A stretch of 64,000 nucleotides of DNA from Desulfobacterales bacterium (GTDB lineage: Bacteria; Desulfobacterota; Desulfobacteria; Desulfobacterales; UBA5852): assembly GCA_963674755.2 (NCBI GenBank), contig CAXXVS010000001.1:672001-736000 (forward strand), read 5' to 3'. The notes under the pieces were generated by a model that searched no databases, was not told the origin of the DNA, and saw only the letters and a list, made by a program, of their open reading frames with translations. Each line of letters begins with the position of its first letter. Position 1 is the stretch's first letter. Positions 45,604 to 64,000 of the stretch are shown here, piece after piece. The translations under genes were made by a program, and so were the position numbers.

Positions 45604-45657
45604 GTCAGGGGAACCGGTCTGCCCCCTTTTTATCTTCAGCCTCATGGAGAAAACGCC

Positions 45658-48072: not shown

Positions 48073-48340
48073 GATACGAAGGCCCTCAGTTTGCCATCCT
48101 TGCGAAAGCGAAGACGCAGGTCCCTGCAAGCCTGTTTCGATACCATTGTATGGGCGATCTTAGTTCCTAAAAATTCGCAATTTCCTGATCAGGAAAATAT
48201 GCCAAAATAAGAAAATTAAAATATTGCCTGCTCACGGCCGCAATCTTAAACGCCGGTCCAAAGGGAACAATATCGGCGCCTGGGTCTGAAAATATTCCTT
48301 GACAGTTTTCCTGAAATCTATCATTTTCCTGAACAGGAAA

Positions 48341-49450
48341 ATGGAAAAATACAGGAAAATACAAACCGAGACGGGGATGATCGACCGACTTCGGCAGGGA
48401 AGAGCCGAGTTGTCGCCGTTGTCCCTTCGCTTTATGGAAGTTGCCAAGAATAAGGGCAGGGATTCCGGATACGACGCACTGATTGAAATTTCGTGGCAGA
48501 AGGAAACCGTCAGATTTGCCGTCGAGTGCAAGGCTCTTTCAACCCCTAAAGCCTTTCAATCCGGATTGATTCAACTGAAGTCGTTAAAACTGCCTGAAGG
48601 CGTATTGCCGATGCTGTGCCTGCCTTTTCTCAGTGAAGCCCAGTTGAAACAGTTGGAAAGTGAGGGAATTAGCGGGATCGACTTGTGCGGAAACGCTGTC
48701 GTCATTGCTCCCGGGAAATTTTACGTCTTTCGCACCGGAGGAAAGAACAGATTTCCCTCCTGGGCTCCGATCAAAAATGTTTACCGCAAGAATACCTCGA
48801 TGGTGGGGAGGGTTTTTCTGGCGCGTCCGGAGTATGAAGCTGTCCAGGAGATTCAAAACGAGATCAGCAGGCGAAATCCCCTGGTCGTATTGGGGGACAA
48901 GAAGCCAATTGGCCTTTCAACTGTTTCAAAGGCGTTGAAATCTCTGGAAGAAGACCTCATCGTTGCGCGCAACGGCGGTATTCGCCTTTTACAGGCCGAC
49001 AAGCTTCTAAATAAACTGGCCGTAAATTATGAGCCCCCGCGAGTCGCAGGGCGGGTGCAGATCAAGATTCAAGAAGACCCTGAAACACTCCGTAATCTGG
49101 TGACCGCGGTTTCTCAAAAGACGGGCTTGCCCGTTGTCGCAACAGGAACATCTTCAGTTTCCCGGTACACGGTTATGCCGCGGGGAGATTTGCTTTCAGT
49201 CTACTGCCCCAAATTGGAACCGCTGCGCGTCCTATTGCCGGGCAGCCGGACGGATCGCTTCCCAAATCTCGAGTTGATCGAAGTCGAGGATGAAACGGTC
49301 TATTTCGATGCGCGCCAGGAAGAGGGGTTTTGGTGGGCATCGCCTGTACAGGTCTATCTTGAACTCATGACCGGGGACAAACGGGACCAGGAAACGGCTG
49401 AGCAGTTGAAACCGTCCATTATGAACACTTCTGGATCGATTTCGCGATGA
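48341..49450 (+). CDS. AbiEi-like (type IV TA antitoxin-like) HTH protein
   Basis: FAVECK, IDLCGN, HTH (LSTVSKALKSLE), ASPVQVYLEL...DKRDQETAE; ATGA overlap with the next gene. Confidence 0.6.
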   Translation: MEKYRKIQTETGMIDRLRQGRAELSPLSLRFMEVAKNKGRDSGYDALIEISWQKETVRFAVECKALSTPKAFQSGLIQLKSLKLPEGVLPMLCLPFLSEAQLKQLESEGISGIDLCGNAVVIAPGKFYVFRTGGKNRFPSWAPIKNVYRKNTSMVGRVFLARPEYEAVQEIQNEISRRNPLVVLGDKKPIGLSTVSKALKSLEEDLIVARNGGIRLLQADKLLNKLAVNYEPPRVAGRVQIKIQEDPETLRNLVTAVSQKTGLPVVATGTSSVSRYTVMPRGDLLSVYCPKLEPLRVLLPGSRTDRFPNLELIEVEDETVYFDARQEEGFWWASPVQVYLELMTGDKRDQETAEQLKPSIMNTSGSISR

Positions 49451-49569: not shown

Positions 49570-50323
49570 TACATCCCTAACACCCGCATCAAAGCTGCTC
49601 CAGGTTTTATAAGCGATATCCTTGAGATTATGTCATTTTTCTGTTAACGAGGAATATCTCTGCAAACAAGTCGGCATATCCCCCGTCATTCCGCGCCAGC
49701 GGCTGCCTGTGAAATGGTAGAGCGCTCTTTAAGGGCACCATTTCCAGTGCATCAAAATAGATGGTAGGGCGTTATCAACCTAAGACGCCCACCCTGAAAT
49801 TTTATAAACGCATCAAATTGTCGAAAGATTCCATAGGCACTAAGAAATCATACTTTTTTAGGTCGCTTATCCTTAATTTGTAGCCTGGAAATGGTGGATT
49901 TAGGAGGAGATCACAATTTGTGACGACTTCAAAGTAAAAGGCGGAACAATCCAGGATAAAGATAGAATCCAGAATGTTAAGTTGGCCCATCCTTACAGGT
50001 AGATATACGCACAATCCAAAATTTGGGTGGGCAAGCGGATTTAGGGGCCACAATGGTCTATACGCATGTGGTAAGCAAAAACAGGCATGGTGTTGTCAGT
50101 CCATTAGACTAAATTGTCTCAAAATAATTATTTTCCGTTATTATGGTGCAGCATCATAATAACGATAATTGGCGGGAAATGATGCCTTTTCAAAACCTAT
50201 AAAATATGTAATTGTTAAATTAACGAATTGATATTGTGGCATATATGACAATCTGGCGGAACAATAACAAAATTCGTAAAAAGTGTCTCAAAAGTATATT
50301 TTTTGTTAAAAAGATGCCTTCCA

Positions 50324-50720: not shown

Positions 50721-51383
50721 ATGAACAATATGAAAACATTTATTGGAGTATTAATAATTATGTCGTTGTTTTCATTCACGAATGTTTTTGCGGCAACACC
50801 TGAACAAAAATTCTGGAAATGGTTCGTGAAAAATCAAGGCATATTATTTGAATTTGAAAAAAACAGAGAAAGGATATTTGACAACCTATCCTCTGAAATG
50901 AAAAAGGTACATCCTGATCTTACCTTTGAATTTGGGCCGATACAGGAATCCGGTAAACGAGAGCTTGTTATTAGTGCAGGAGGTATTAAAGACGCTTTTC
51001 CATTCGTTGAGTCTTTGTATGATTCGGCACCCAAACTTTCCAATTGGATTATTATTAAATTCCGGCCCAGGCGAAATCCCCTAAATGACTTAGAATTTGG
51101 TGGCAAGACGATAAAGGCATCTGAAGTTTATTATAAAATGTTTAAAGACCAAGAGAAAGTCGGCCTAATAATTTTTCTTGATGGATATAATGATGCTGAA
51201 AAAGATATTTACGGAAATATTGGTTACCTATTTTTAGACGAGGCATTAGGGGAATATGATATTGAAATGAAAGTCGGCTTCATTGAGTTTCACGGAAGAG
51301 AATCAAAATATTTTGAAGGTTCTCAACCGCTGAGTGAATTGGCTGAACATTTTGACGAATATTTTAAAAATACAATGAATTGA
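50721..51383 (+). CDS. cassette: exported hypothetical protein
   Basis: Signal peptide; FWKWF...LTFEFG...ELVISAGG; bounded by attC sites. Confidence 0.8.
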   Translation: MNNMKTFIGVLIIMSLFSFTNVFAATPEQKFWKWFVKNQGILFEFEKNRERIFDNLSSEMKKVHPDLTFEFGPIQESGKRELVISAGGIKDAFPFVESLYDSAPKLSNWIIIKFRPRRNPLNDLEFGGKTIKASEVYYKMFKDQEKVGLIIFLDGYNDAEKDIYGNIGYLFLDEALGEYDIEMKVGFIEFHGRESKYFEGSQPLSELAEHFDEYFKNTMN

Positions 51384-51384
51384 C

Positions 51385-51445
51385 GTATAACATTTTGCTG
51401 CACGGGAGCGCAAAAAGCGCGCGCCCCGTGAGCAATGCGTTATAC
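51385..51445 (+). other. attC site
   Basis: GTATAAC...TGCTGCACGGG/CCCGTGAGCA...GTTATAC. Confidence 0.9.
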
Positions 51446-51460
51446 AATCATAGTGATGGT

Positions 51461-51781
51461 ATGAAAAAGACCACAAAAATATGCCCTGATTGTGAAAGGG
51501 AAAACCCTACTGCCCAAAAAAAATGTCAGTTCTGTGGTGCTGTTTTACACTACGGAAAGGATTACTACAAATTAAAAAGTTTTCTCTCGTAGGTCACAAT
51601 TTTCGGCATTTTAACAGGGTGTCTTTATACAAGCCTTTCAAAATCTAAAATTATCGATCCAGCTTTTATTGATAATATTCCGAATTGGGTTTCTTATATA
51701 TTTTGGGGATTTGTAGCTATTGGCGTTCTATGTCGCTTATTAGTTGGCATGGCGGATGTGGACGAAACTTTTATTGAATAA
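51461..51781 (+). pseudogene. cassette: zinc-ribbon membrane protein with an in-frame TAG at 51590-51592
   Basis: CPDC/CQFC; the frame continues after TAG through two TM-like stretches to TAA next to attC. Confidence 0.65.
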
Positions 51782-51787
51782 AACTCT

Positions 51788-51879
51788 GTATAACCTTTCG
51801 CTGTTTCTGAATGTCACGGTATGCAATACTTCGCTTCGCTCAGGCAAGCCGCGCCATCAGAAAAGCTTAGCCGTTGGGT
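51788..51879 (+). other. attC site
   Basis: GTATAAC...GCTGTTTCTGA/TCAGAAAAGC...GTTGGGT. Confidence 0.8.
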
Positions 51880-51890
51880 GAAAAAACAAA

Positions 51891-52721
51891 ATGAACCAAG
51901 ATATCAAATCTATTCTCTATAATATTTTAGGTGGTATAATAGTCTCTGTCCTCACAGTTATTTTTATATCTCTCCGAAAACAATTAAAAAGTTTTCAACT
52001 ACATAGACTTTTAGGATTCTGTTCCCATTCAGGGGACGAACCGAAAATCGTTTATGGTCAACTTGCCTTGCCAAATGTTTTCAAACAAAACGGGCAGGTT
52101 ATTACACATCCCTATGTAAAGCCACCAAGAAACGGTGGAGCAATTCCACTTCAAGGAACATATTCAATAACCCATCCTGTAAGCGAGTGTGAAGTTCGGG
52201 CATCTACATACCTTACTAGTATGCTTTCAAACATAAAAAACACTCATCCACAATTAATTTCTGATGTCGATGCAAATGCAGTCTTAGACAGTAATCTATT
52301 TGCGTTAGGTGGACCAGGGTCAAATTACAAAACAGCAGATATTCTTGCATCACCAGCAAATTTATTTATTCAAATGGCGCATAATGGTTTTTCTTTAATC
52401 TCAGGGGAACATCTGCCCTTTGTCTGTAACCAAACAACTGACTATGGTTTTATTCTACGCATAACTCCCCCTCAATTCCCTAAACGTTCGTGGATTGCAT
52501 GTTCAGGTTTAGGGGAATGGGGTACAAGCGGATCTGCTTGGTTTCTTGCCAACAAATGGAAGTATTTGATGAGAAAAATATCACCTTTTGCCTATTACAT
52601 GGGAATTATGCCTATATGTGATTTTGTTGCAATTATTAAAATTACTCGTGGGCAAGATCAGTCAGCTGAAATAGTCGATGCATACCGAAAATCAGGTAAA
52701 ATGATAAAACGTATAAAATAA
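51891..52721 (+). CDS. cassette: hypothetical protein with an N-terminal TM
   Basis: TM helix; LGGPGSN and GLGEWGTSG motifs; start GTTGGGT matches end ACCCAAC. Confidence 0.8.
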   Translation: MNQDIKSILYNILGGIIVSVLTVIFISLRKQLKSFQLHRLLGFCSHSGDEPKIVYGQLALPNVFKQNGQVITHPYVKPPRNGGAIPLQGTYSITHPVSECEVRASTYLTSMLSNIKNTHPQLISDVDANAVLDSNLFALGGPGSNYKTADILASPANLFIQMAHNGFSLISGEHLPFVCNQTTDYGFILRITPPQFPKRSWIACSGLGEWGTSGSAWFLANKWKYLMRKISPFAYYMGIMPICDFVAIIKITRGQDQSAEIVDAYRKSGKMIKRIK

Positions 52722-52722
52722 C

Positions 52723-52784
52723 ACCCAACATCGGCATTCAGTGGAGCGCAAAAAGCGCGCGCCCACTGATGCCGGGCGTTAGAT
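52723..52784 (+). other. attC site
   Basis: ACCCAAC...CGGCATTCAGTGG/CCACTGATGCCG...GTTAGAT. Confidence 0.9.
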
Positions 52785-52802
52785 ATCAGGTGTTAATTTA
52801 AA

Positions 52803-53903
52803 ATGTTGCCAAATCAAACATCTATTAAAAATTACAACATCTATACCTACACATTTCTTGATGATTTATCTTTTATAAAAGATCCACACGAATATTTTGA
52901 ACATGAAACAAAAGAGACAATTGAAAATGCTATTGTTTTAGTAGGTGAAAAATTTAAGGAACATGGGTGGGAAGGTGATGGTTCAATTGGAATAATTTGG
53001 CTCCCACCGTTTATAGAAGAGGGAATAGAGGACACTTGGGGAACATACGTTTGGCATGTTAAACAAAATAATGACGGAATATCCTTTATAGCATCTTATG
53101 AACCATTAAATACAAAAAGGCTGGGACAGAACGAGTTTGGACTTTCAAGCGTACCCGGGAGAACGTTAACACCTATAAGCATTATCGAAACCGACGTAGA
53201 GTGGTTTTTGAAAGCAATTGATGGTGTCGAAAATAATTTAAAGGAATCAATAGAATTTTTAGCGATCACGTCATCACATGGTGTTACTGAGACAATTAAA
53301 GCAAATACGAACATTCATTACCAAAGCGTTTTGGTTAGATATTTTCAAGAATTTCTGGATGAGTGTTACCTGCAAATTTTAATTGATGCAATTGAAAATG
53401 GCAATCCACACAAAATTAAATTAAGAAAGTCCCAAATAAAAATTGACCTCGCTTCACATATGCCGGAACCTGATGATGAAGAGGATGATATTGTTGATAC
53501 AGCACTTACTATTAGATTTTTTATAGGTGATATGTGGAAAGCCTATAAATGGGAGCCATTTAAAACCAAAATGGATATGCTGTTTAAAAGTATTGATTAC
53601 AATTTGGATAGCACTTTTTCATATGAAATTAGAAAGCATGTAATTATCAGGAATTGCATGCAGCACCATGAAGGAAGTCTAGATCAAGATTCTTTAAAAC
53701 AGCTTGGAAGACAAAGCATTGAAATGAAGTGTGCCGGTGGAATATACCACATAAAAGTCTGGAAGCCTCTTAAAATTGAAGCAGAAGAAATTTATTCGTT
53801 ATGTGATTTACTTAAGAAATTTGTCGAAGATTTCCATAGACATATTAAGCGCAGGGTGCCTACAGTACATTACATTTCAAGAAAAACCCAACCTGAAACT
53901 TAA
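52803..53903 (+). CDS. cassette: hypothetical protein with a HEPN-like RxxxxH motif
   Basis: RNCMQH in a helical C-terminal half. Confidence 0.7.
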   Translation: MLPNQTSIKNYNIYTYTFLDDLSFIKDPHEYFEHETKETIENAIVLVGEKFKEHGWEGDGSIGIIWLPPFIEEGIEDTWGTYVWHVKQNNDGISFIASYEPLNTKRLGQNEFGLSSVPGRTLTPISIIETDVEWFLKAIDGVENNLKESIEFLAITSSHGVTETIKANTNIHYQSVLVRYFQEFLDECYLQILIDAIENGNPHKIKLRKSQIKIDLASHMPEPDDEEDDIVDTALTIRFFIGDMWKAYKWEPFKTKMDMLFKSIDYNLDSTFSYEIRKHVIIRNCMQHHEGSLDQDSLKQLGRQSIEMKCAGGIYHIKVWKPLKIEAEEIYSLCDLLKKFVEDFHRHIKRRVPTVHYISRKTQPET

Positions 53904-54016
53904 GCGGACCGGGAATAGCGGTGCTTTTTTTAAACAATTTACTTGCGTGTTTTTAAATAGTTTTTTACAACCTTTGTCAGGGCTTGTTCCCCGGCCCGCT
54001 TAGTTCATAGTTATGT
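53886..54016 (+). other. attC site (long, overlaps the ORF end)
   Basis: ACCCAAC...AACTTAAGCGGACCGGGAA/TTCCCCGGCCCGCTTAGTT...GTTATGT. Confidence 0.85.
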
Positions 54017-54032
54017 AAAAAGGAAACTATGC

Positions 54033-54419
54033 ATGTCCGATACTTTATTAGGTGTAATTATTGGAGGTCTAATAGCAAGCATTGGCCCATTAATTACTCT
54101 CAAAATGAACCATACGAAATGGAAGTGTGAAAAAAAACTCGAATACCTTAAGGAAAAGAGAAACAAGTTAGAAAAAGCATGTTCTGGAACACTAACAAAA
54201 ATTGCGGAAGGTATACTAAAGAATAATTATTCGTCCGATATGATGAGTGATATTGATTTTTTATTTCCTGAGAAGGTTTCAAAAGCATTTGAAAATCTGA
54301 TGAAAGAAGATGATAAAACAGAGCTTAAAATGCAAAAACATTATTATCTTATTGCTCGTGCTATGAAACAATCCATCGCAGAATTGGATGAAGATATTTG
54401 TAAAATTATATCTACATAG
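54033..54419 (+). CDS. cassette: small single-TM hypothetical protein
   Basis: Start GTTATGT matches end ACATAAC (54455). Confidence 0.8.
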   Translation: MSDTLLGVIIGGLIASIGPLITLKMNHTKWKCEKKLEYLKEKRNKLEKACSGTLTKIAEGILKNNYSSDMMSDIDFLFPEKVSKAFENLMKEDDKTELKMQKHYYLIARAMKQSIAELDEDICKIIST

Positions 54420-54486
54420 TTTAATACGATTTATTTATGGTGTACTCATAATGCACATAACAATCTAATCAACCGGAACCTGAACA

Positions 54487-54602
54487 GGGTCGCATCTTAA
54501 TTATTAACTATTGACATCTGCTCTATATCAGTTCGTTATACCGACGGACGATTCCGAAATAGAGTGAGGCAAATAGAACGTCGTATAATTAGGATTCGAC
54601 CC
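54487..54602. mobile_element. MITE/REP-like element A, copy 1 (splits an attC)
   Basis: GGGTCGCATCTTAATTA left end, degenerate right end; between an attC left half (54455) and right half (54652). Confidence 0.75.
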
Positions 54603-54667
54603 TCTTTATCTCCCAAACTATGTGTAGCGTCTGCTTATGGCCATCGTTATAACTTAAAGGAAATAAC

Positions 54668-55162
54668 ATGGATATAGGAAAGCTACTGTCAGATTTAAAA
54701 GGGAAGGTATTAGATGCCTCCCATTTTGATCTTCTAAGGCATGCATACGATCTGCAAGAGCAAAATATCGTACAACTTAAGAGCAATAATGCCGCGTTAA
54801 AGGAAAGCAACGATTTATTAAAAGACAAGCTTTCTTCTTACGTTAAAAAAATTGAAGATCTCGAAGAGGAAAATTCAAAACTTACCAAGCAAGTCATATC
54901 GCAATCAAATTCTAAATCAGAAAAAATTGTTTTGTCTGATAGTGCAATAGCAGTGCTAAAAAAGATCGTACAAGAAGATGTCACTGATTTTTATCAAAAT
55001 GCCATTATTGATGTTCTGGGGATGGGTAGAATAGCGACCCAAGCTGCACTTGATGAATTATCTGAAAAGGGCCTTATTGATTGCATGTCAGCAAGGCCTG
55101 GGTATGGCTTGCATTATCATCTAACAAGCAAAGCGAAGAAAGCGCTAACCAGTGTAGTATAG
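54668..55162 (+). CDS. cassette: coiled-coil + winged-helix-like protein
   Basis: Heptad stretch, then ALDELSEKGLID...YHLTSKA. Confidence 0.75.
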   Translation: MDIGKLLSDLKGKVLDASHFDLLRHAYDLQEQNIVQLKSNNAALKESNDLLKDKLSSYVKKIEDLEEENSKLTKQVISQSNSKSEKIVLSDSAIAVLKKIVQEDVTDFYQNAIIDVLGMGRIATQAALDELSEKGLIDCMSARPGYGLHYHLTSKAKKALTSVV

Positions 55163-55206
55163 TTATAATACATAAAGATTGAAACGACCTAAATAGGAAA
55201 GTATTT

Positions 55207-55329
55207 GGGTCGCATCTTAATTATTAACTATTAACATCTGTCCTATATCAGTTCGCTATACCAACTGACGATTTCGAAATAGAGTGAGGCAAATAAAACA
55301 TCGTATAATTGATAATTAAGATGCAATTC
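55207..55329. mobile_element. element A, copy 2
   Basis: Near-identical to copies 1 and 3. Confidence 0.8.
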
Positions 55330-55377
55330 TCTTTATCACCCTTTTTATGAATAATATGAATAAAAGGAGAAATCGGC

Positions 55378-55641
55378 ATGTATGCAATGTTATCACTTGA
55401 TTTAGACAGAAAAACCACAAAGGAACAGCGTGATAAGTTCTATGCATATTTGAAGAAGGAACTGTGGACAAAGATGCCGAAAGTGACTACAACATGGTAT
55501 GCTGACTTTTCAACTGGTGTTACGGAATCTGGGGTTATTTCAACAACAAAAGCTGACGTTGCAAATGCTGCGAAACATGCTGGTGTCACTGCATATGATG
55601 CTGTTGTTCATGTTGGACCATCTAAACCAACACCATTCTAA
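55378..55641 (+). CDS. cassette: small ferredoxin-fold protein, possibly Cas2/VapD-like
   Basis: AAGGAG RBS; MYAMLSLDL...QRDKFYAYL pattern; 87 aa. Confidence 0.6.
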   Translation: MYAMLSLDLDRKTTKEQRDKFYAYLKKELWTKMPKVTTTWYADFSTGVTESGVISTTKADVANAAKHAGVTAYDAVVHVGPSKPTPF

Positions 55642-55705
55642 AGAAAGGCCAAATAGGAACCTGAATAGGGTCACCCATTAAAAGACTCGTCAAAGGTGTT
55701 CTGAG

Positions 55706-56623
55706 ATGAAAGAAACATGTCCAATCTGCAATAACCAAATGAACTACACTTCGATTGGTAGCCGGGATGCTTCCTCAATAACTTGTGAGATATGCGGTGA
55801 ATATATTTTAACAAGAACAGCTTTAGTGAATTTAAGAAGCTCTAATTTGACGCCACGCCAAAGAGCGAATATTTATGGATGGTTGAGGATGAATCCGCAT
55901 TTCGAAATATCAACCGCTAATATTGATAGCCTTGAGAGACTCCCGAATCCATCCTTTCATGACAGAGCAGATAATTTGTTGTTGTATTTTGAAAATTTGA
56001 CGTCATACGCTGGGAAAAAACTCAATAAAAACAATTCATGGCTGGGTTTCTCTTCGAGTCTTAATCAAGATGAACTTAATGAAACAATTTCTTTCCTTGA
56101 ATCTGTAGGTCGTATTAGCCAAGAAAAAGTTGCTCCAAATCACCTTATCAAAATTGAGCCACAAGGGTGGTCTCATTTAGAAAAGATCAAGAAGATAAAT
56201 GAAGATAGTAATCAAGGATTTGTTGCAATGTGGTTTTCTGAAGATATGCAGAAAATTTACGATAGTGTTATATCAAAAGCAATTCTATCAGCTGGTTACT
56301 CGCCGCATCGTGTAGACCAGCGTGAGCACAATAATAAAATTGATGATGAAATCATTGCACAGATACGGAAAAGCCGGTTTGTTATAGCAGATTTCACTGG
56401 GCATAGAGGTGGTGTTTATTTCGAAGCTGGTTTTGCTAAAGGCCTAAATATCGAAGTGTTTTGGACATGTCGAGAAGATGATCTCGAAAATTTGCACTTT
56501 GACGTGAGGCAATATAACTGCATCACTTGGGAAATCGATAAATTGAATGAATTTGAAAATAAAATCAAAAATAGAATAGAAGCAGTTTTAGGGAGGGGCT
56601 CAGGACCAGGTATCGCCTTTTGA
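55706..56623 (+). CDS. cassette: Zn-ribbon + wHTH + nucleoside 2-deoxyribosyltransferase/TIR-like domain protein
   Basis: CPIC/CEIC; GFVAMWF, SRFVIADFT, GVYFEAGFA. Confidence 0.75.
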   Translation: MKETCPICNNQMNYTSIGSRDASSITCEICGEYILTRTALVNLRSSNLTPRQRANIYGWLRMNPHFEISTANIDSLERLPNPSFHDRADNLLLYFENLTSYAGKKLNKNNSWLGFSSSLNQDELNETISFLESVGRISQEKVAPNHLIKIEPQGWSHLEKIKKINEDSNQGFVAMWFSEDMQKIYDSVISKAILSAGYSPHRVDQREHNNKIDDEIIAQIRKSRFVIADFTGHRGGVYFEAGFAKGLNIEVFWTCREDDLENLHFDVRQYNCITWEIDKLNEFENKIKNRIEAVLGRGSGPGIAF

Positions 56624-56663
56624 CAATTTTTATATAAGGGAACCTGAATAGGAGAAAGTGTTG

Positions 56664-56786
56664 GGGTCGCATCTTAATTATTAACTATTGACATCTGCCC
56701 TATATCAGTTCGCTATACAGACCGACAATTCCGAAATAGAGTGAGGCAAATAAAACATCGTATAATTACTAATTAAGATCCGACCC
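56664..56786. mobile_element. element A, copy 3
   Basis: 17-bp terminal inverted repeats GGGTCGCATCTTAATTA / TAATTAAGATCCGACCC (1 mismatch). Confidence 0.8.
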
Positions 56787-57022
56787 TCGTTCCCTCTCCA
56801 GTGCATCAGAGTGCACTTTGTACTGTTTTAAGACGCTGTTTAGAGCACCAAATCATGCCCCGTAAATTGATGAGATTTGTTACTGATTATAAACTAATAT
56901 CTCAATATTTATACATTTCACGGAGAGAATAAAAAATCAGTTTTGCGGTCTAGGGCACAGGAAATGTGGCATTTGCCTTAAAATTTCGGTTCTCTAAACT
57001 AGGTTAGAACAGCAAAATAGGA

Positions 57023-57448
57023 TTGAACATAGTGGATTGGAAAAAGTTCATAGAAGACTTATTAAAGTATGCAATTGTAATCGCCCCTGTTATTCTTTCT
57101 GCAGTTTTGGGCTATCTTTTTGCAAAATTTAGGGCCTTTCGTGAAGAAAAACAGAAAGCTTATAGTGAACTGCTACCTATCATAGTCAAGATGCTATATG
57201 ACCCTCAACCTGAAATCGAATCGGAATTTAGTAGATCATTAATGAAATTATGGCTCTATGCAAACAAGCGCGTAGCGAAAAAGTTAGATCATGCTATTGG
57301 ACTTTTTCATAAACCTGATAAACGAAATGAAGTTACCAAGGCTCTTCAAGAGGCGATAGTCGAAATGCGCAAGGATATACAAATTTTGCCTTGGCAAAGG
57401 TTGAAGCCTGATGATGTTCGTCATCTTTATACTAAAATTTCAAAATGA
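57023..57448 (+). CDS. cassette: single-TM hypothetical protein
   Basis: Start GTTAGAA (57003) matches end TTCTAAC (57454). Confidence 0.8.
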   Translation: MNIVDWKKFIEDLLKYAIVIAPVILSAVLGYLFAKFRAFREEKQKAYSELLPIIVKMLYDPQPEIESEFSRSLMKLWLYANKRVAKKLDHAIGLFHKPDKRNEVTKALQEAIVEMRKDIQILPWQRLKPDDVRHLYTKISK

Positions 57449-57453
57449 AGTTG

Positions 57454-57520
57454 TTCTAACATTTTGCTTCACCAGATTCGGGCCAAAAAGCGGCCCTCTC
57501 TGGTGAGCAATTCGTTATGG
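57454..57520 (+). other. attC site
   Basis: TTCTAAC...TTGCTTCACCAGA/TCTGGTGAGCAA...GTTATGG. Confidence 0.9.
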
Positions 57521-57682
57521 ATCTAAAGAGATGACAGATACTAAAACCACAGAATCGCAGGAAGGCGAATCTACAAAATTCGAGTCAACTCCAAATATTG
57601 GAATAGAGAAAGAGACTTATGGAATAGAACCTAAACATTTATCCACCCAAAAAGATGACAAAAAATGCAAGGAAGGTCTAAT

Positions 57683-57744
57683 GGGGTCAAGTCTGCCCAT
57701 GACTCAATTAAATTTCAAGATGAGTCATGAGCAGACTTGACCCC
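57683..57744. repeat. 62-bp palindromic REP-like element B, copy 1
   Basis: GGGGTCAAGTCTGCCCATGACTCA...TGAGTCATGAGCAGACTTGACCCC. Confidence 0.85.
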
Positions 57745-57780
57745 AAGACCACAAGAATAGACCCTAAGAATGCAAAAAAT

Positions 57781-58173
57781 ATGACCAAACGAAATATTGT
57801 ATATTTAATCATATCCGTTATTATCTTTCTGCCTCTTTTAAGCTATGCCATTAATCCATTACACAAGTCGCCTGACAAAATAAAAAATAAACTTATTAAA
57901 AAAACTAAAATAGGTTTTACAAAAGAAAAGGTGAAAGAAATCGGGAAGGCCCAGCTGAATTTAATTTTGAGAGAAGATGAGTATGGACCTCCTGATAGAG
58001 AAATGGTGATCCCTTTCAAAGATATCCTTCATACCTACTTAGAAGCTGAATTAGGATCTCATTTTTCACATGATTACTTTGTTTTTAGAACCTATGTTTA
58101 TGCCTATTGGGTGTTCGATAGAAATGATAAACTTATAGATATATTGATCTATAAAGAAACTGACGCCCTATAA
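57781..58173 (+). CDS. cassette: exported hypothetical protein
   Basis: MTKRNIVYLIISVIIF signal/anchor; the longer ORF-track start lies inside element B. Confidence 0.7.
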   Translation: MTKRNIVYLIISVIIFLPLLSYAINPLHKSPDKIKNKLIKKTKIGFTKEKVKEIGKAQLNLILREDEYGPPDREMVIPFKDILHTYLEAELGSHFSHDYFVFRTYVYAYWVFDRNDKLIDILIYKETDAL

Positions 58174-58181
58174 AAATTCAG

Positions 58182-58243
58182 ACATAACCTGCTGCTGGTT
58201 GGGACGCGCAGGGGCTGCGCGCCCCACATCAGAGGCGCTAAAA
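58182..58243 (+). other. attC site with a non-canonical right end (G|CTA)
   Basis: ACATAAC...GGGACGCGCAG/CTGCGCGCCCC...GCTAAAA. Confidence 0.7.
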
Positions 58244-58620
58244 AAAATTTTCTCAATATCACTTCCCGAGATGGGGGTTTGCGGATTAAATACCCGGTAT
58301 TCCTCATAACGTCTCTGCAGCACAGGCCATTAACCACCATGCTCAACGGCACCCACTTTTTACTGACCTACACCTGCAACTTCGAATGCGACCACTGCTT
58401 TCTGTATTGCAGCCCATGGTCGAAGGGGACGTTTAGCATCGGTCAGGTGACGCGGGTGCTGGACGAGGTTCGGAAGATCGGCACGGTGGAATGGATTTTT
58501 TACGAGGGCGGCGAACCGTTTCTCTTCTACCCGCTGCTGTTGGAGAGTGTCCACCGGGCGGCGGAACGCGGGTTCAAGGTGGGAATCGTGACCAACGCCT
58601 AAACGTTGAGGCAAGGTGAA
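58241..58620 (+). repeat. direct repeat copy 1 (~380 bp) with a truncated radical SAM N-terminus
   Basis: Near-identical to 62423-62804; encodes CNFECDHC...EGGEP...IVTNA*. Confidence 0.92.
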
Positions 58621-58625
58621 GTAAT

Positions 58626-58687
58626 GGGGTCAAGTCTTCCCATGACTCAATTAAATTTCAAGATGAGTCATGAGCAGACTTGACCCC
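58626..58687. repeat. element B, copy 2
   Basis: One difference from copy 1; same TAAT and AAGACC flanks. Confidence 0.85.
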
Positions 58688-58696
58688 AAGACCCCT

Positions 58697-58715
58697 CATA
58701 ATATTATAGTTGGAC
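58697..58715 (+). other. attI-like array start 2
   Basis: CATAATATTATA|GTTGGAC; complementary to R'' GTCCAAC at 59345. Confidence 0.6.
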
Positions 58716-58722
58716 TAAAAAA

Positions 58723-59331
58723 ATGCCAAATTGTGATTACTATGGAACAATTGATGATCATGGAGATATATTAGAATTTCTATTTTCCGAAAATTTATGT
58801 GATATATTTGAATTGTATTCTGAGGTTGAAAGGCCTTTAAAAAAATTCAATTCACCTGAAGAAGTTCTAAGTCAATTTTCAAGATGTTATACAACAGGAA
58901 AAAAATGGCATACTGTTTACTTGCAGCTTTATGTAAAAGGGGCTGGACCAGATTTTAAGCCAACACTTAAAGAGTTGGTGCCTGAAAAAAATGATGGAGC
59001 TACTTTCAAATATAGGGCAGAAGGATGGGGATTGATTCAATTATATCTTTCTACGACAGTTGATAAGATATTACGTGATTCGCACTCAAATCATAATACT
59101 GAAAAACGAGCTAATAAATGGTCAAGTATCTGTAGTGAGTTAGAGGATCCTTCACTTTGGGACTTTTCAAAAATTACGAAATTCTCATCGCGGCTTAATC
59201 GGCAAATAAGAAAGAAGAAGGTGGCAAAATTAAATAGCCGCGTGGTGCTACCAGGCGGTTTAAAAGCATGGGATGAAGGGTGTACTCTGGCTCCATATCA
59301 TCCGGATAAGCATGAAATTGAAAGACTGTAA
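58723..59331 (+). CDS. cassette: hypothetical protein
   Basis: AT-rich ORF with matching cassette ends. Confidence 0.8.
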   Translation: MPNCDYYGTIDDHGDILEFLFSENLCDIFELYSEVERPLKKFNSPEEVLSQFSRCYTTGKKWHTVYLQLYVKGAGPDFKPTLKELVPEKNDGATFKYRAEGWGLIQLYLSTTVDKILRDSHSNHNTEKRANKWSSICSELEDPSLWDFSKITKFSSRLNRQIRKKKVAKLNSRVVLPGGLKAWDEGCTLAPYHPDKHEIERL

Positions 59332-59344
59332 ATTGTTAATCAGA

Positions 59345-59412
59345 GTCCAACAATTGGTTCCAGGTGACGCATTCCGCTGCGCTGCATGCGCCCCTGAACC
59401 ATAGCGTTGGGT
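59345..59412 (+). other. attC site
   Basis: GTCCAAC...TGGTTCCAGG/CCTGAACCA...GTTGGGT. Confidence 0.9.
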
Positions 59413-59427
59413 CAATAGGAATAAGTA

Positions 59428-60297
59428 ATGTTAAAGAAATTCGTAGATGGACTAATATTTGGTGCAGGCTTCGGCATTACATTCGTAGCGATTTTGTTCG
59501 CTTCCATATATTTCATATTACCAACTTTAGCAAAGAAATCATTTAATTCTTTAACTCCAACATCTCAAAACACCTTAGCAACTGTGCCAGCTATCGAGGC
59601 ACCAAAAACTCGCTATCTTGGTTCCACCAACATATCTTCAAGTGGTTTTACTCAAAAAGGAATACTGGCTACCGGTGATGGAAAAATAATAGGTAGTGCT
59701 ACAACCAACGGGAAGCTCCTCAATGGCCTAAAACTCCGATTAGCATTGAACGGTAGTGTTTATAGCTCTTGGGCTACCACTGATTTAGCAGGCGAATATA
59801 CAGTTAAAGTGCCTTACGGTGACTATATTATAGACGGTTTTGAATTTGATAAAACAACGGCTGATGAATTGTTGCCGAATATGATCTTACATCCTCAAAA
59901 CCCGCATTCGAGTAACAAATTTCAAGTAAATTCGTTGTCAGAGGGACGAGGCCTAACCTTTAAATTTGTAAATCCAATTATGAAGAAAATCAAAAAAAGC
60001 AAATTTAGTTCCGACGAGGATGTCATACTTGAATGGGAAGATTACCCAAATGCATCAAGCTATACTTTGCAAATTGATGAGAAATCTGATCCCTATTCTT
60101 GGGCGAGCGACCACTTATTTGAATGGTCTGATAGACCTGAAGTTTCAAAGTCGCATATTAACTTAAGTGAATACAAAATAAAATTGAAGCCTGGGAATTT
60201 TTATACAATAGATATTAGCGCCAAAGACAAAAACGGGAATTGGATATCAGAAAGTGCAAGAAACTACTCTGGCTATGATTTCGAAATTATAAAATAG
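59428..60297 (+). CDS. cassette: membrane-anchored beta-sandwich (carboxypeptidase-regulatory/Fn3-like) protein
   Basis: TM; ATTDLAGEY...PYGDY; LEWEDYPNASSY; start GTTGGGT matches end ACCCAAC. Confidence 0.75.
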   Translation: MLKKFVDGLIFGAGFGITFVAILFASIYFILPTLAKKSFNSLTPTSQNTLATVPAIEAPKTRYLGSTNISSSGFTQKGILATGDGKIIGSATTNGKLLNGLKLRLALNGSVYSSWATTDLAGEYTVKVPYGDYIIDGFEFDKTTADELLPNMILHPQNPHSSNKFQVNSLSEGRGLTFKFVNPIMKKIKKSKFSSDEDVILEWEDYPNASSYTLQIDEKSDPYSWASDHLFEWSDRPEVSKSHINLSEYKIKLKPGNFYTIDISAKDKNGNWISESARNYSGYDFEIIK

Positions 60298-60307
60298 AAT
60301 TCATGCG

Positions 60308-60362
60308 ACCCAACATTGGGCTGTTGCCGACTCGGTTCCCTCGCGGCAAAGCTCTGGCGCTA
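60308..60362 (+). other. terminal attC site, interrupted at its right end by the intron
   Basis: ACCCAAC...GCTGTTGCCG/CGGCAAAGC...GCGCTA. Confidence 0.75.
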
Positions 60363-62420
60363 TCGCGCCGAGCAAAGCTCGGCGCATCTTGCAGGGTGTA
60401 AGTCCCTGCCGGGAGAGAGTCGGCAACGGCTTTCTGTAAGGGTTAGCCCCCCACCCGTATCGAGCCTTGGGTCCATGGCGGAGATGCTTTCTGATCATTG
60501 TAAGTGCTGGAAGCCGCTGTATTGGCTGGAAACGAGCCGCGACCCGGGAGACCGGTGGCATTCGCGGATGGTCTCACCCCACTGAACGAACAATGGAGCA
60601 GAGGTATCGAACAAGATGGGCTAAGCGTAGGCAGAGAATCCTGTAGGCCGTAGGGGAGACCGCGCTCCCTGAAGAGCTGGTACAGCTTCGAAATAGCAAT
60701 TGCGGACGCCGAGGGTTTTAACGTGCACCGAAGGCAACACAGAAGCATCCGTTACAGGCGAGGATGTGAAGGTCCGCCGGAGTCATCAGGCCGTGGCATG
60801 CAGGAAGAGATGCGCTGTAGAACTCGGGAAGCCCCAGAGGCTCCTGTGGGGAAGGAATCCGCAGGTGGGAGCGGAGACGCTCTACATGCCGATGGGGTGT
60901 CTTATCAGGCATACTACTCAGCGGTGGGGAAAGCCCACTACACGGGGAAGGACCTGACGGAAGTACGCAGCCTGCAAAGGAAACTCGTACCGGACAAAGT
61001 CGGGCTGGAGCAATACGAGCCAACCTCCCTGCAGGGGATAGCAACGAAGGCGGAAGTACGAACAGCACACCGTTTTCAGGATCTGTACCGGTGTCTAAAC
61101 GCCCGATTTTTGGCAGACTGCTGGAAGGATTTGAACAAAGATGCGGCCAGCGGAATCGATCAAGTGACGGCGGAGGCCTACGAGGAGAATCTTGAGGCCA
61201 ATATCAAGGCACTGGAAAAGCGCCTGAGACAAAAGCGGTACCGCGCCAAATTGGTGCGGCGATGTTACATTCCTAAGGGCAATGGGGAAGAGAGGCCACT
61301 TGGCATACCGGCACTTGAGGACAGATTGTTGCAGTTAGCGTGTGCCAAGATTTTAACATCGATTTTCGAATCGGATTTTGTAGAGACCAGTTACGCTTAT
61401 CGTCCCAAACGAAGCGCCAAAGAGGCAATAGAAGATTTGCAGTTCAATCTTCAGTTTGGGAAGTTTGGCTACATTGTCGAGGCTGATATACAAGGCTTTT
61501 TCGACAATATTGACCATGACTGGGTTTTACGGATGCTCCGGGAGCGGATTGATGACGCGGCGTTTCTAACCCTGCTCGGCAAGTGGCTGAAGGCTGGGGT
61601 ACTGGATACGGATGGTAAGGTGATTCATCCGGAGTCGGGAACGCCGCAAGGCGGGAGCGTATCGCCGGTACTGGCAAACGTATATCTGCATTTTGCTCTG
61701 GATCTGTGGTTTGAAAAGCGTGTGAAGGCGCAGAGTTGTGGTGAGGCGTTTATTCTCAGGTACGCCGATGACTTCATATGCGCCTTTCGCTATCGCGATG
61801 ACGCCGAGAGGTTCTATCATGAGCTGCCCAATCGGTTGAGCAAGTTCAAACTCGCGGTGGCACCCGAGAAGAGCGAAATGATACGTTTCAGCCGCTTTCA
61901 TCCAGGGATGCAAAGCCGGATCATGTTTTTAGGCTTTGAGGCCTATTGGATGGAAGACCCCAAGGGTGCGGTTAAAGTGAGACTGCGAACGGCCCGCAAG
62001 AAGCTGCACGATGCCTGCCGACGCATCAAGGGGTGGATAAAGGAGAACCGTCATCTGAAGGGGGCAAACTTTATAAGAGCGCTGAACCGGAGGTTGCAGG
62101 GCCATTACAATTACTTCAATGTGCCCGGCAACTTGAATTCGTTGTGGCGTTTTTACCGCTGGTCAGTGGACTGTGCATTCAAATGGCTGAACCGGCGAGG
62201 GGGAAAGCGTAAAAGCTTTACCTGGAAAGTGTTCACACGCGCCATAGACCGGTTAGGTGTCGCCAAGCCCCAAATGGAGATGGTCAACCGAAAACATCGC
62301 GTGTTTGTATAGTGCAAAGGCCTTACGCGGAAGCGAGTACAACCGAGGAACCGGATGCGGGAAAACCGCACGTCCGGGTCTGTGCGGGGGGCGCTGGGTA
62401 ACCGGCGTTCCTACCGTGAG
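60363..62420 (+). mobile_element. group II intron (boundaries +/-2 nt)
   Basis: 5' TCGCG; domain V GAACCGGATGCG-GGAAAA-CCGCACGTCCGGGTC at 62348-62380; domain VI ending CCTACCGTGAG; RT ORF inside. Confidence 0.92.
60723..62312 (+). CDS. ltrA: group II intron reverse transcriptase/maturase, no endonuclease domain
   Basis: RPLGIP, DIQGFFD, GTPQGG, YADD, X domain (LQGHYNYF); true start probably near 61000. Confidence 0.93.
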   Translation: MHRRQHRSIRYRRGCEGPPESSGRGMQEEMRCRTREAPEAPVGKESAGGSGDALHADGVSYQAYYSAVGKAHYTGKDLTEVRSLQRKLVPDKVGLEQYEPTSLQGIATKAEVRTAHRFQDLYRCLNARFLADCWKDLNKDAASGIDQVTAEAYEENLEANIKALEKRLRQKRYRAKLVRRCYIPKGNGEERPLGIPALEDRLLQLACAKILTSIFESDFVETSYAYRPKRSAKEAIEDLQFNLQFGKFGYIVEADIQGFFDNIDHDWVLRMLRERIDDAAFLTLLGKWLKAGVLDTDGKVIHPESGTPQGGSVSPVLANVYLHFALDLWFEKRVKAQSCGEAFILRYADDFICAFRYRDDAERFYHELPNRLSKFKLAVAPEKSEMIRFSRFHPGMQSRIMFLGFEAYWMEDPKGAVKVRLRTARKKLHDACRRIKGWIKENRHLKGANFIRALNRRLQGHYNYFNVPGNLNSLWRFYRWSVDCAFKWLNRRGGKRKSFTWKVFTRAIDRLGVAKPQMEMVNRKHRVFV

Positions 62421-62422
62421 AT

Positions 62423-62804
62423 AAAAAAATTTCTTCTCAATATCACTTCCCGAGATGGGGGCTTGCGGATTAAATACCCGGTATTCCTCATAACGTCTCT
62501 GCAGCACAGGCCATTAACCACCATGCTCAACGGCACCCACTTTTTACTGACCTACACCTGCAACTTCGAATGCGACCACTGCTTTCTGTATTGCAGCCCA
62601 TGGTCGAAGGGGACGTTTAGCATCGGTCAGGTGACGCGGGTGCTGGACGAGGTCCGGAAGATCGGCACGGTGGAATGGATTTTTTACGAGGGCGGCGAAC
62701 CGCTTCTCTTCTACCCGCTGCTGTTGGAGAGTGTCCGCCGGGCGGCGGAACGCGGGTTCAAGGTGAGAATCGTGACCAACGCCTAAACGTTGAGGCAAGG
62801 TGAA
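62423..62804 (+). repeat. direct repeat copy 2 with a truncated radical SAM N-terminus
   Basis: Near-identical to 58241-58620. Confidence 0.92.
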
Positions 62805-62805
62805 T

Positions 62806-64000
62806 ATGACCAAACCCCGTGTACCCATGGGAGCGGTAATTGGAAGGGCCCTCATTGCGCCCCTATACCTGGAGGCGGCTTCCTGGAAAGCCCTTGTCAG
62901 ATCCCTGCTGACCCTTGCGCTTGTGGGCCTGTTGCCGGTCGCCGCAGCCTATTTTCACATGGGATGGATGGTACAGGTGGCCGCGTTCGCATTTCTCTGG
63001 GTCGCAATCCTCTTGCTGGCCTGGAACTTCGAGCGCCACCTGCTGCTGGGGGCGGCGGCCGGTGAATCCGATCCGAGGCTGCGGCAGCGCTACGGGCTCA
63101 ATCTTATGGTCCTGGTCGTCGGGGGCATGTTGCTGGCATTTGTCATTTGGTATTTGCTGCAATGGGTGCTCGCGGCCATATTTTTACTGCATTTGGCTGC
63201 CAGCGATAACAACCCTTTACCTTCAGTGGCCTACGTACTGGGATGGATCGTGGCGATTTCGGTGGCGGGTTCGTTTCCGGTTCGTTTTGTCCTGCTGCTG
63301 CCGGCCGCGGCGGCAGGCCACGATATCGCGCCTAAGAGAATCTGGCGCCTGACCCGCGGCAACGGGCTGCGGCTTTTCCTGGTGCTTGTCATCCTTCCGG
63401 GCGTGCTGGCCGGCTATGGGCAATTGCCCCTCGCCTCAGGCCGCAGCTTTCCAGGGAGCGCGATGGTGGCCGGTCTGCTGACCGCTTACGGGGGCATGGT
63501 GTATTTGGCGGTTCTGGCATGGACCTATCGCAGCCTGTCCGCCATGCCGCTGCCGGAACTCAAACAAGGTGCCGGAGCGCGCCTGCTCAGGGATAATGCC
63601 CGCAGACTGTGGGCGGCGCTGGCGATCGTCCTGCTTCTGTTCGGCGGCGTTGCGGTTTATAACGCTTTCTACAGGACGGCCCCGGGGGAAACCGTTCAAA
63701 TCCTGCGCTTCGGCAAACCGCAACGCATCGCATCCGATCCCGGCACACGGGTCAAGATCCCCTTTGTCGAGGAAGCGCGCCCGCTGCCCGATGTTTTTCA
63801 AGCCCAATACCAAGGCACGTACCTGACCTACCACAAAGAGTTAGTGCCATTGGACTGCCGGGTCCAGTGGCGGATCGTCGACGCGGCGGTTTTTGACAGG
63901 ACGATAGGTGGCCGCACCACGTGTGCCGATGGCATCATCGGCGATCTCGTGATCAGCCTGCTGCGGGACCGCTTCGCGAGGCTGGGCCCGGATGACATTC
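62806..64000 (+). CDS. multi-TM protein fused to an HflC-like SPFH domain (runs off the window; not in ORF track)
   Basis: Manual translation is open from ATG 62806 to the window end; TM helices, then ETVQILRFGKP...PGTRVKIPFVE...QWRIVD. Confidence 0.8.
   Translation, partial: MTKPRVPMGAVIGRALIAPLYLEAASWKALVRSLLTLALVGLLPVAAAYFHMGWMVQVAAFAFLWVAILLLAWNFERHLLLGAAAGESDPRLRQRYGLNLMVLVVGGMLLAFVIWYLLQWVLAAIFLLHLAASDNNPLPSVAYVLGWIVAISVAGSFPVRFVLLLPAAAAGHDIAPKRIWRLTRGNGLRLFLVLVILPGVLAGYGQLPLASGRSFPGSAMVAGLLTAYGGMVYLAVLAWTYRSLSAMPLPELKQGAGARLLRDNARRLWAALAIVLLLFGGVAVYNAFYRTAPGETVQILRFGKPQRIASDPGTRVKIPFVEEARPLPDVFQAQYQGTYLTYHKELVPLDCRVQWRIVDAAVFDRTIGGRTTCADGIIGDLVISLLRDRFARLGPDDI

Follow-up and report, generated by a model that had tools for sequence, protein, structure and literature searches.

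A 64,000-nucleotide stretch of the genome of a Desulfobacterales bacterium (the window) contains an attC site followed directly by a group II intron, which we take, with a probability of about 75%, to be an intact class E retroelement without an endonuclease, belonging to a lineage whose targeting is directed at the R' end of attC. Comparison with relatives shows that its EBS1 loop, UAACGU, pairs with RCGTTR on the top strand and that insertion occurs at G|TTR^RRY, 3 nt past the integrase crossover and in the orientation of the cassettes. The intron would reverse-splice into the single-stranded lagging-strand template at the replication fork with fork DNA as primer, a step for which a strand bias is observed and its cause is our interpretation. 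Because it lies in sense, the intron could splice out of the array transcript, and because it lies past the crossover, it would belong to the downstream unit: the G|TT crossover and the L box would be left intact, and the intron, as the 5' end of the next cassette, should travel along with it. The ribozyme, finally, would function with a rewired catalytic core, for which covariation is observed and the structure deduced. The parts of the intron are as follows.

60363-62421, + strand: class E group II intron of 2,059 nt, from 5' UCGCG to 3' GAGA, bounded by the alignment of relatives and by boundary tests
60363-60367, + strand: 5' splice site UCGCG, aligned with GUGCG/GCGCG of relatives
60719-60724, + strand: EBS1 loop UAACGU, complementary to RCGTTR, with one C.A mismatch to GCGCTA of its own attC
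60902-60904, + strand: J2/3 linker UUA (gamma is U, second base U), replacing GGA/AGA
60990-62312, + strand: intron-encoded RT/maturase in domain IV, with YADD at 61761, no endonuclease domain, and a frame open from 60723
62348-62381, + strand: domain V, triad AAC at 62349-62351 opposite GGGUC at 62376-62380
62382-62421, + strand: domain VI, bulged A at 62413, 4-nt tail GAGA at 62418-62421

A domain I motif, a domain V, a domain VI with a bulged A and an RT/maturase ORF in domain IV are all present. The Rfam model group-II-D1D4-6 matches at 60681-60786 (E 2e-13), and the ORF, which ends 183 codons past YADD, scores 342.6 bits against TIGR04416 (cut-off 300) and has RVT_1 as its sole Pfam domain; the Pfam search found no D/En domain in it. 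The original prediction of a group II intron in sense orientation at the R' end of an attC is borne out by the Rfam and TIGR04416 matches, domains V and VI and the attC parts, all found in the sequence, as are its placing of the intron start right after GGCGCTA (TCGCG at 60363, aligned with the starts of relatives), its 5' end other than GUGYG and its AAC triad in place of AGC. The RT does lack an endonuclease, as predicted, but this says nothing of separateness from IIC-attC introns, since the absence is shared with class C (PMC3552965). A conserved N-terminal extension of the RT across domains I-III was considered and rejected, the frame being open in 1 of 40 loci. Folding of domain I as a whole was uninformative (z -1.8), and no sigma-70 promoter match was found within 60200-62900.

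The boundaries were established by comparison with relatives at 79 genome loci (from the best 80 of 107) and 80 metagenome loci (from the best 80 of 343); plasmids yielded no close relative, the best reaching about 40%. For the 3' end, the target was restored at each locus and then compared with the R'' of the next cassette. With an RAGA end, the restored R' equals the next R'' at 7/7 positions in 9 of the 26 U-start loci (those beginning, like this one, with U) that have a downstream ORF, and with a 3-nt tail in 0 of the 26, two of which were mis-parsed. Two loci, L038 (GTTC) and L079 (GTTG), give the 7/7 match solely in the RAGA register, which also excludes a shifted 5' end. A gene split by the copy in L015 regains its frame with the GAGA end alone (399 versus 261 codons), and tandem and nested copies display GAGA|TCGCG and GAGA|GAGCG joints. 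By this comparison the intron spans 60363-62421, and its insertion point is G|TTR^RRY. An end at GAG, or a shifted 5' end, is contradicted by the restoration, the L015 frame and the joints, and a canonical end at GAGAT by the base after GAGA, which varies among loci and belongs to R'. Of the span first proposed, 60308-62430, the attC from 60308 and the intron start were correct, and the end falls at 62421, not further right. Introns already in place at L079, L105 and L252 carry tandem and nested insertions at their 5' junction, with U-type copies entering both U-type and G-type introns. An ORF-less copy in L022 apparently has the 3-nt tail CGA, and L094 apparently a longer tail.

The assignment of the RT to class E, not class C, is supported by two trees, whose reference set holds neither class D nor class F and omits one class E locus, with class labels drawn from a table in PMC8919778 and from plasmid loci. 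The larger tree (133 sequences, 416 columns) groups the RT with all five class E references (SH 0.985); the smaller (39 sequences) groups it with three of them at UFBoot 99, a value that drops to 50 once two divergent references are added. Class C RTs form a separate clade in the 39-sequence tree (UFBoot 100), which takes in a plasmid intron antisense to its cassette gene, taken as IIC-attC from its position and the tree. An ordinary IIC-attC intron, or an unusual top-strand IIC type, would share the location at attC and the want of an endonuclease, but the RT falls outside class C in both trees, which refutes this reading, the domain I is long and IIB-like (about 460 nt, with the Rfam D1D4-6 match), and the insertion lies on the opposite strand and at the other end of attC; we give it practically no chance. 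The different, class E-like lineage foreseen in the original prediction is thereby upheld, the RT sitting among class E references, well away from class C. Within class E, the U-start introns are monophyletic (0.989 for 34 tips in the large tree, 84 in the small one) and nested among G-start relatives that also target attC. A clade of 15 tips in the 39-sequence tree, all targeting CGTTA, TGTTA or CGTTG, has UFBoot 100, and the 133-sequence tree shows this core target again on further class E branches, interspersed with different targets.

The site occupied by the intron is the last of a cassette array.

50721-60362, + strand: cassette array that hosts the intron and lacks a complete integrase; cores of its attC sites at 51439, 51873, 52778, 54010, 57514, 58237, 59406 and 60359
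60308-60362, + strand: attC, last of the array; R'' ACCCAAC at 60308-60314, L'' GCTGTTGC at 60320-60327, L' GCAAAGC at 60346-60352, R' G|CTA at 60359-60362
Last six bases of the 60308-60362 attC, + strand: IBS1, GCGCTA
62422-62804, + strand: 3' exon, a 383-bp repeat with a truncated radical SAM gene; copy at 58240-58622; not a cassette with its own attC

The attC at 60308 has an R'' of the form RYYYAAC and an L box paired 7/7 between L'' and L' with one extrahelical base, and it directly follows the stop of a 289-aa ORF; three sister sites of its family occur elsewhere in the genome. It folds no better than shuffled sequence (z -0.01 for the bottom strand, -0.85 for the top strand), and it lacks an R' of the form GTTRRRY with a stable bottom-strand hairpin, its core being GCTA. 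Four other attC sites of the array fold well (z -3.6 to -5.7). A weak hairpin and a GCT core are expected of the last site of an array, and this one is terminal and probably recombines poorly. The eight clear cores run from 51439 to 60359, with weaker chance candidates also in the scan. A full integron integrase is encoded on another contig of the same genome, and a short fragment resembling the C-terminus of an integron integrase (E 7e-9) lies at about 49999-50112, just upstream of the array.

The direct repeat of 383 bp (58240-58622 versus about 62422-62804, 98% identical, with a truncated radical SAM gene in both copies) begins in both copies at an attC core G|CTA, and two cassettes and the intron lie between them; a further, internally deleted radical SAM piece is found near 45656. 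The arrangement resembles a joining of array ends at a secondary site, followed by duplication. The junction at 58240 had been proposed as the intron-free equivalent of the occupied site, but as an empty allele it fails: it belongs to a different attC, differs by 3 nt right at the join, and shares only GGCGCTA and the 383-bp repeat. Being a paralogous junction, it cannot fix the intron boundary. Two copies of a 70-bp inverted-repeat element (GGGGTCAAGTCT...AGACTTGACCCC), which we take to be REP-like, also lie inside the array, at about 57680-57755 and 58625-58695. Genes of the cassette region at 55706-56623 and 48299-49450, with weak matches to the nucleoside 2-deoxyribosyltransferase and AbiEi antitoxin families, are possibly defence-related.

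Homologues of the intron share its insertion point, an identical base in the R' core of attC, and lie on the top strand, which agrees with the strand originally proposed. The prediction had named unrelated homologue sites, or an RT grouping with IIC-attC introns, as outcomes that would count against it; neither was seen, though about half of the homologue sites are not full attC hairpins. The intron's own genome holds five insertions of this kind, every one behind an attC or attC-like end: four after CGTTA (three in the integrase-linked array, one a complete ORF-less copy) and the one in the window after CGCTA. Across all relatives, 41 distinct U-start and 35 distinct G-start junctions follow G(C/T)T(A/G/C) and 24 others do not, the only U-start exception seen being a tandem copy. 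An attC motif score of at least 10 was reached by 17/40 U-start and 17/36 G-start core junctions versus 0.47% of 3,000 random CGTTR sites, and a score of at least 9 by 22/40 and 20/36 versus 4.1%, in a set that counts three own-genome flanks as non-core; the fold-test set counts them correctly. There, constrained folding at a 5% background cut picked out 14/41 U-start, 16/35 G-start and 3/24 non-core junctions. About half of the core-junction targets are full attC sites, many others have an L'-like arm, and some are unrelated. A preference for attC, a trait in common with IIC-attC introns, is present at about half of the sites.

The search for EBS/IBS pairing called for in the original prediction yielded UAACGU, which is complementary to RCGTTR and has its one C.A mismatch at the intron's own site. 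Among 74 introns with a located loop, a UAACG-type EBS1 occurs in 56 of 58 core-targeting introns and in 1 of 14 others, and the loops of these 14 fit their own different targets (5.11 versus 2.78 for shuffled pairs, 0/2,000). EBS1 explains the register of insertion, and EBS1-IBS1 pairing of the IIB-like kind is present. No EBS2-IBS2 pairing above chance was found at attC-type sites (3.57 versus 3.49 shuffled); at the 14 other sites p was 0.014, with a crudely located loop. The first base of the 3' exon, considered for EBS3-IBS3 with no located position for EBS3, differs between near-identical U-start copies, being T, G, C or A. Of the targets, about half fail the attC tests, and one or more lie within a gene: at position 2333 of L015, a U-start intron interrupts a long ORF, presumably, from a motif, akin to a type I restriction subunit; this gene would need the rewired intron to splice. 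An EBS1 variant, UAGCG, in the second copy of L022 and in L038 and L079 would pair fully with CGCTA targets like the site at 60359. Since relatives with ordinary ends use the same site, the non-GUGYG end and the AAC triad are not what directs the lineage to attC.

Two other accounts of target choice have to be weighed. The short RCGTTR might be all that is recognised, on an exposed lagging-strand template, with the enrichment at attC left by later purging of harmful insertions. A 5-6 base EBS1 match alone occurs at 19,057 sites in this genome. That some half of the core junctions fall short of full attC, that several copies in one genome (G004) sit at non-attC sites, one of them in a gene, and that the EBS2 test was negative are all consistent with such an account, but the enrichment amounts to up to about 90-fold over the same-motif background, target bases -20 to -13 resemble the L' arm of attC even where there is no hairpin, and an intron that splices in sense should be tolerated at many other sites too; we consider it unlikely. 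We likewise doubt that the attC hairpin or L' arm is read as a structure by the intron-encoded protein or by domain I, in the manner of IIC-attC introns on the opposite strand, with EBS1 setting the register only. Many targets have only the 3' half of attC or are without a hairpin, and close relatives retarget by a change in EBS1 alone, even if a short EBS1, the missing EBS2 signal, the mismatch tolerated at the 60359 site and the tandem insertions after GCGA/GAGA, which have a domain VI hairpin just upstream, would suit recognition of this kind. We retain the reading of a lineage programmed through EBS1 against the R' end.

For such a lineage the fork would offer the target strand. RmInt1, which also lacks an endonuclease, reverse-splices mainly into the lagging-strand template (PMC8914252), and the attC bottom strand lies on the leading template in 25/30 sedentary integrons (PMC5371416), which puts its complement, the attC top strand, on the lagging one; in most chromosomal integrons the target strand would thus be available there. 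The sense strand of the intron is the G-rich strand at 19/20 loci in four genomes and at 3/3 in its own genome, as called from local GC skew, the sign of which was right in 1,838 of 1,947 trials, with five skew values within 0.01 of zero. The bias may mirror integron or gene orientation only. The dnaA gene (C2:253864) was rejected as an origin marker in this genome, where it does not lie at the GC-skew switch.

Near-identical 5' ends with varied flanks number 13 in one genome and 11 in another, and this multi-copy spread together with the intact YADD ORF suggests recent mobility. In one contig of an RNA library, whose source relative is about 87-90% alike, 3' GAGA abuts 5' UCGCG exactly, at a depth of 40.5. 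It may represent either a circle left by excision or a DNA tandem, an arrangement that does occur, and such a contig is absent from three other sequencing runs examined. Among the joints listed from sequencing-run contigs (15 of 46) there was no spliced exon junction or empty allele, and splicing and mobility of the intron are inferred. ORF-less deletion forms are frequent in sediment contigs, and in the intron's own genome a complete ORF-less U-start copy of about 850 nt (C2:2321300-2322147, L187) occupies one of the attC sites in the integrase-linked array, and two more 5' fragments lie nearby. A G-start class E 5' end at attC (C2:2330063, L201) is fused to pieces of a CL1-like intron, of which a full copy occurs at C2:1974400-1976500.

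The consensus ends GUGYG...AY and the AGC/CGC triad are absent from this intron, which has UCGCG...GAGA and AAC, and its relatives show that these departures vary together. The J2/3 linker is UUA in 39/39 U-start loci and GGA, AGA or GGG (RGR) in 51/51 G-start loci, one misplaced row aside. In domain V, AAC stands opposite GGU in 33/33 and AGC opposite GAU in 46/46; tails with AAC/GGU are GAGA (38), AAGA (2), GCGA (2) or other (4), and those with AGC are GAC (44), GAT (23) or other (10), counts that leave out 31 unparsed hits to domains V and VI. The three class E references that could be parsed have AGC and GAC, and the 3' tail is one base longer in U-start introns. By these counts the U1 start, the UUA linker, the AAC triad and the terminal A are one covarying set of one subclade, and, as the bases changed once on one branch, the counts represent one event and lend no independent support to each pair. 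In group II introns the second base of J2/3 partners the second base of the triad, and the first intron base interacts with the next-to-last one. In addition, gamma-gamma' joins a J2/3 base to the last intron base in a Watson-Crick pair and J2/3 makes triples with the triad (PMC6224600), while the triad G forms a G.G-U triple (PMC7583470). Four contacts would then be altered together: gamma-gamma' would become U-A in place of G-C/A-U; the second J2/3 base, U, would meet the triad A, with U.A replacing G.G; the domain V pair beneath would be flipped from G.A to A.G; and the first base, U, would face a next-to-last G where G faces A in relatives. From this covariation we infer that the ribozyme operates on the basis of a rewired core.

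The altered ends and triad could also be those of a crippled ribozyme, spread as DNA by integrase-moved cassettes or by recombination and not by splicing. Splicing has not been seen, and truncated and ORF-less copies are many, but near-identical copies carry different, precisely joined flanks, the altered bases persist in introns whose RTs are as little as about 60% identical, and an ORF-less copy retains the whole fold; we judge this very improbable and favour a functional, rewired intron.

The intron differs in several respects from those already known at attC sites. The IIC-attC introns (S.ma.I2 and relatives) are likewise attC specialists without an endonuclease, but, in the accounts available to us, they are of class C, insert antisense on the bottom strand within R'' at TTGT/T, and separate a gene from its attC (PMC3001079, PMC4424553, PMC7923331). 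The present intron is of class E and inserts in sense on the top strand, at GTTR^RRY in R', on the downstream side of the crossover; a class C protein and a bottom-strand, antisense insertion in R'' at TTGT/T are absent here. Closest to it are H.ha.F1 and H.ha.F2 of a Halorhodospira halochloris attC cluster, which are also of class E, without an endonuclease, oriented with the cassettes and beside attC-like sites, and the printed RT sequence of which resembles this RT closely, by eye only; these fragments are 5'-truncated, and the parts of the paper available to us give no insertion point, EBS1-attC pairing, lineage survey or altered ends (PMC7923331). Two single cases with other RT classes insert in sense directly at attC: UHB.I2 (CL1/IIB1), which also has the non-G start UUGCG (PMC7923331), and a top-strand IIC intron of Enterobacter cloacae (as cited in PMC7923331). 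With bacterial class E introns generally, in the portions of PMC8919778 (class labels) and PMC3552965 at hand, this intron has in common the RT clade, the lack of D/En and retargeting via EBS1, and the G-start members have GGAUC opposite the domain V triad, as those introns do; it departs from class E in its U start, UUA linker, AAC with a flipped pair, terminal A and 4-nt tail.

As far as these sources go, only IIC introns had previously been tied to integrons, apart from the class E fragments in one attC cluster and the CL1 intron after an attC (PMC7923331), and the accessible text of PMC4424553, PMC3001079 and PMC8876359 names IIC-attC alone. The literature available to us describes no R'-targeting class E lineage and no UCGCG/UUA/AAC/RAGA set, though earlier notice in subscription papers is possible. 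What appears new here is thus the covarying UCGCG/UUA/AAC/RAGA core and the R'-directed, top-strand class E lineage; the class E fragments in one attC cluster were already known.

A class E lineage whose EBS1 fits the attC core would represent a second route into the attC niche, on the other strand and with the unit of gene and attC unbroken, and would turn cassettes into carriers of a retroelement. We suggest, tentatively and at slightly less than even odds, that the clade is widespread and that its members are active ribozymes built on a naturally rewired site (a U.A triple in the catalytic triplex, a U-A gamma pair, U1 with the next-to-last G, and a shifted 3' splice site), partly excised as circles and using cassettes as a vehicle through insertion just past the crossover on the strand exposed at the fork; they would constitute a second, independent partnership between introns and integrons, probably wider than that of IIC-attC. 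Annotation pipelines that require GUGYG...AY and AGC would miss such introns or misplace their bounds. The subclade with the swapped core would amount to a natural compensatory experiment on the active site of group II introns and, by analogy, of the spliceosome, one that predicts the base partners between J2/3 and the triad, and the splicing of introns that start with U and end with A.
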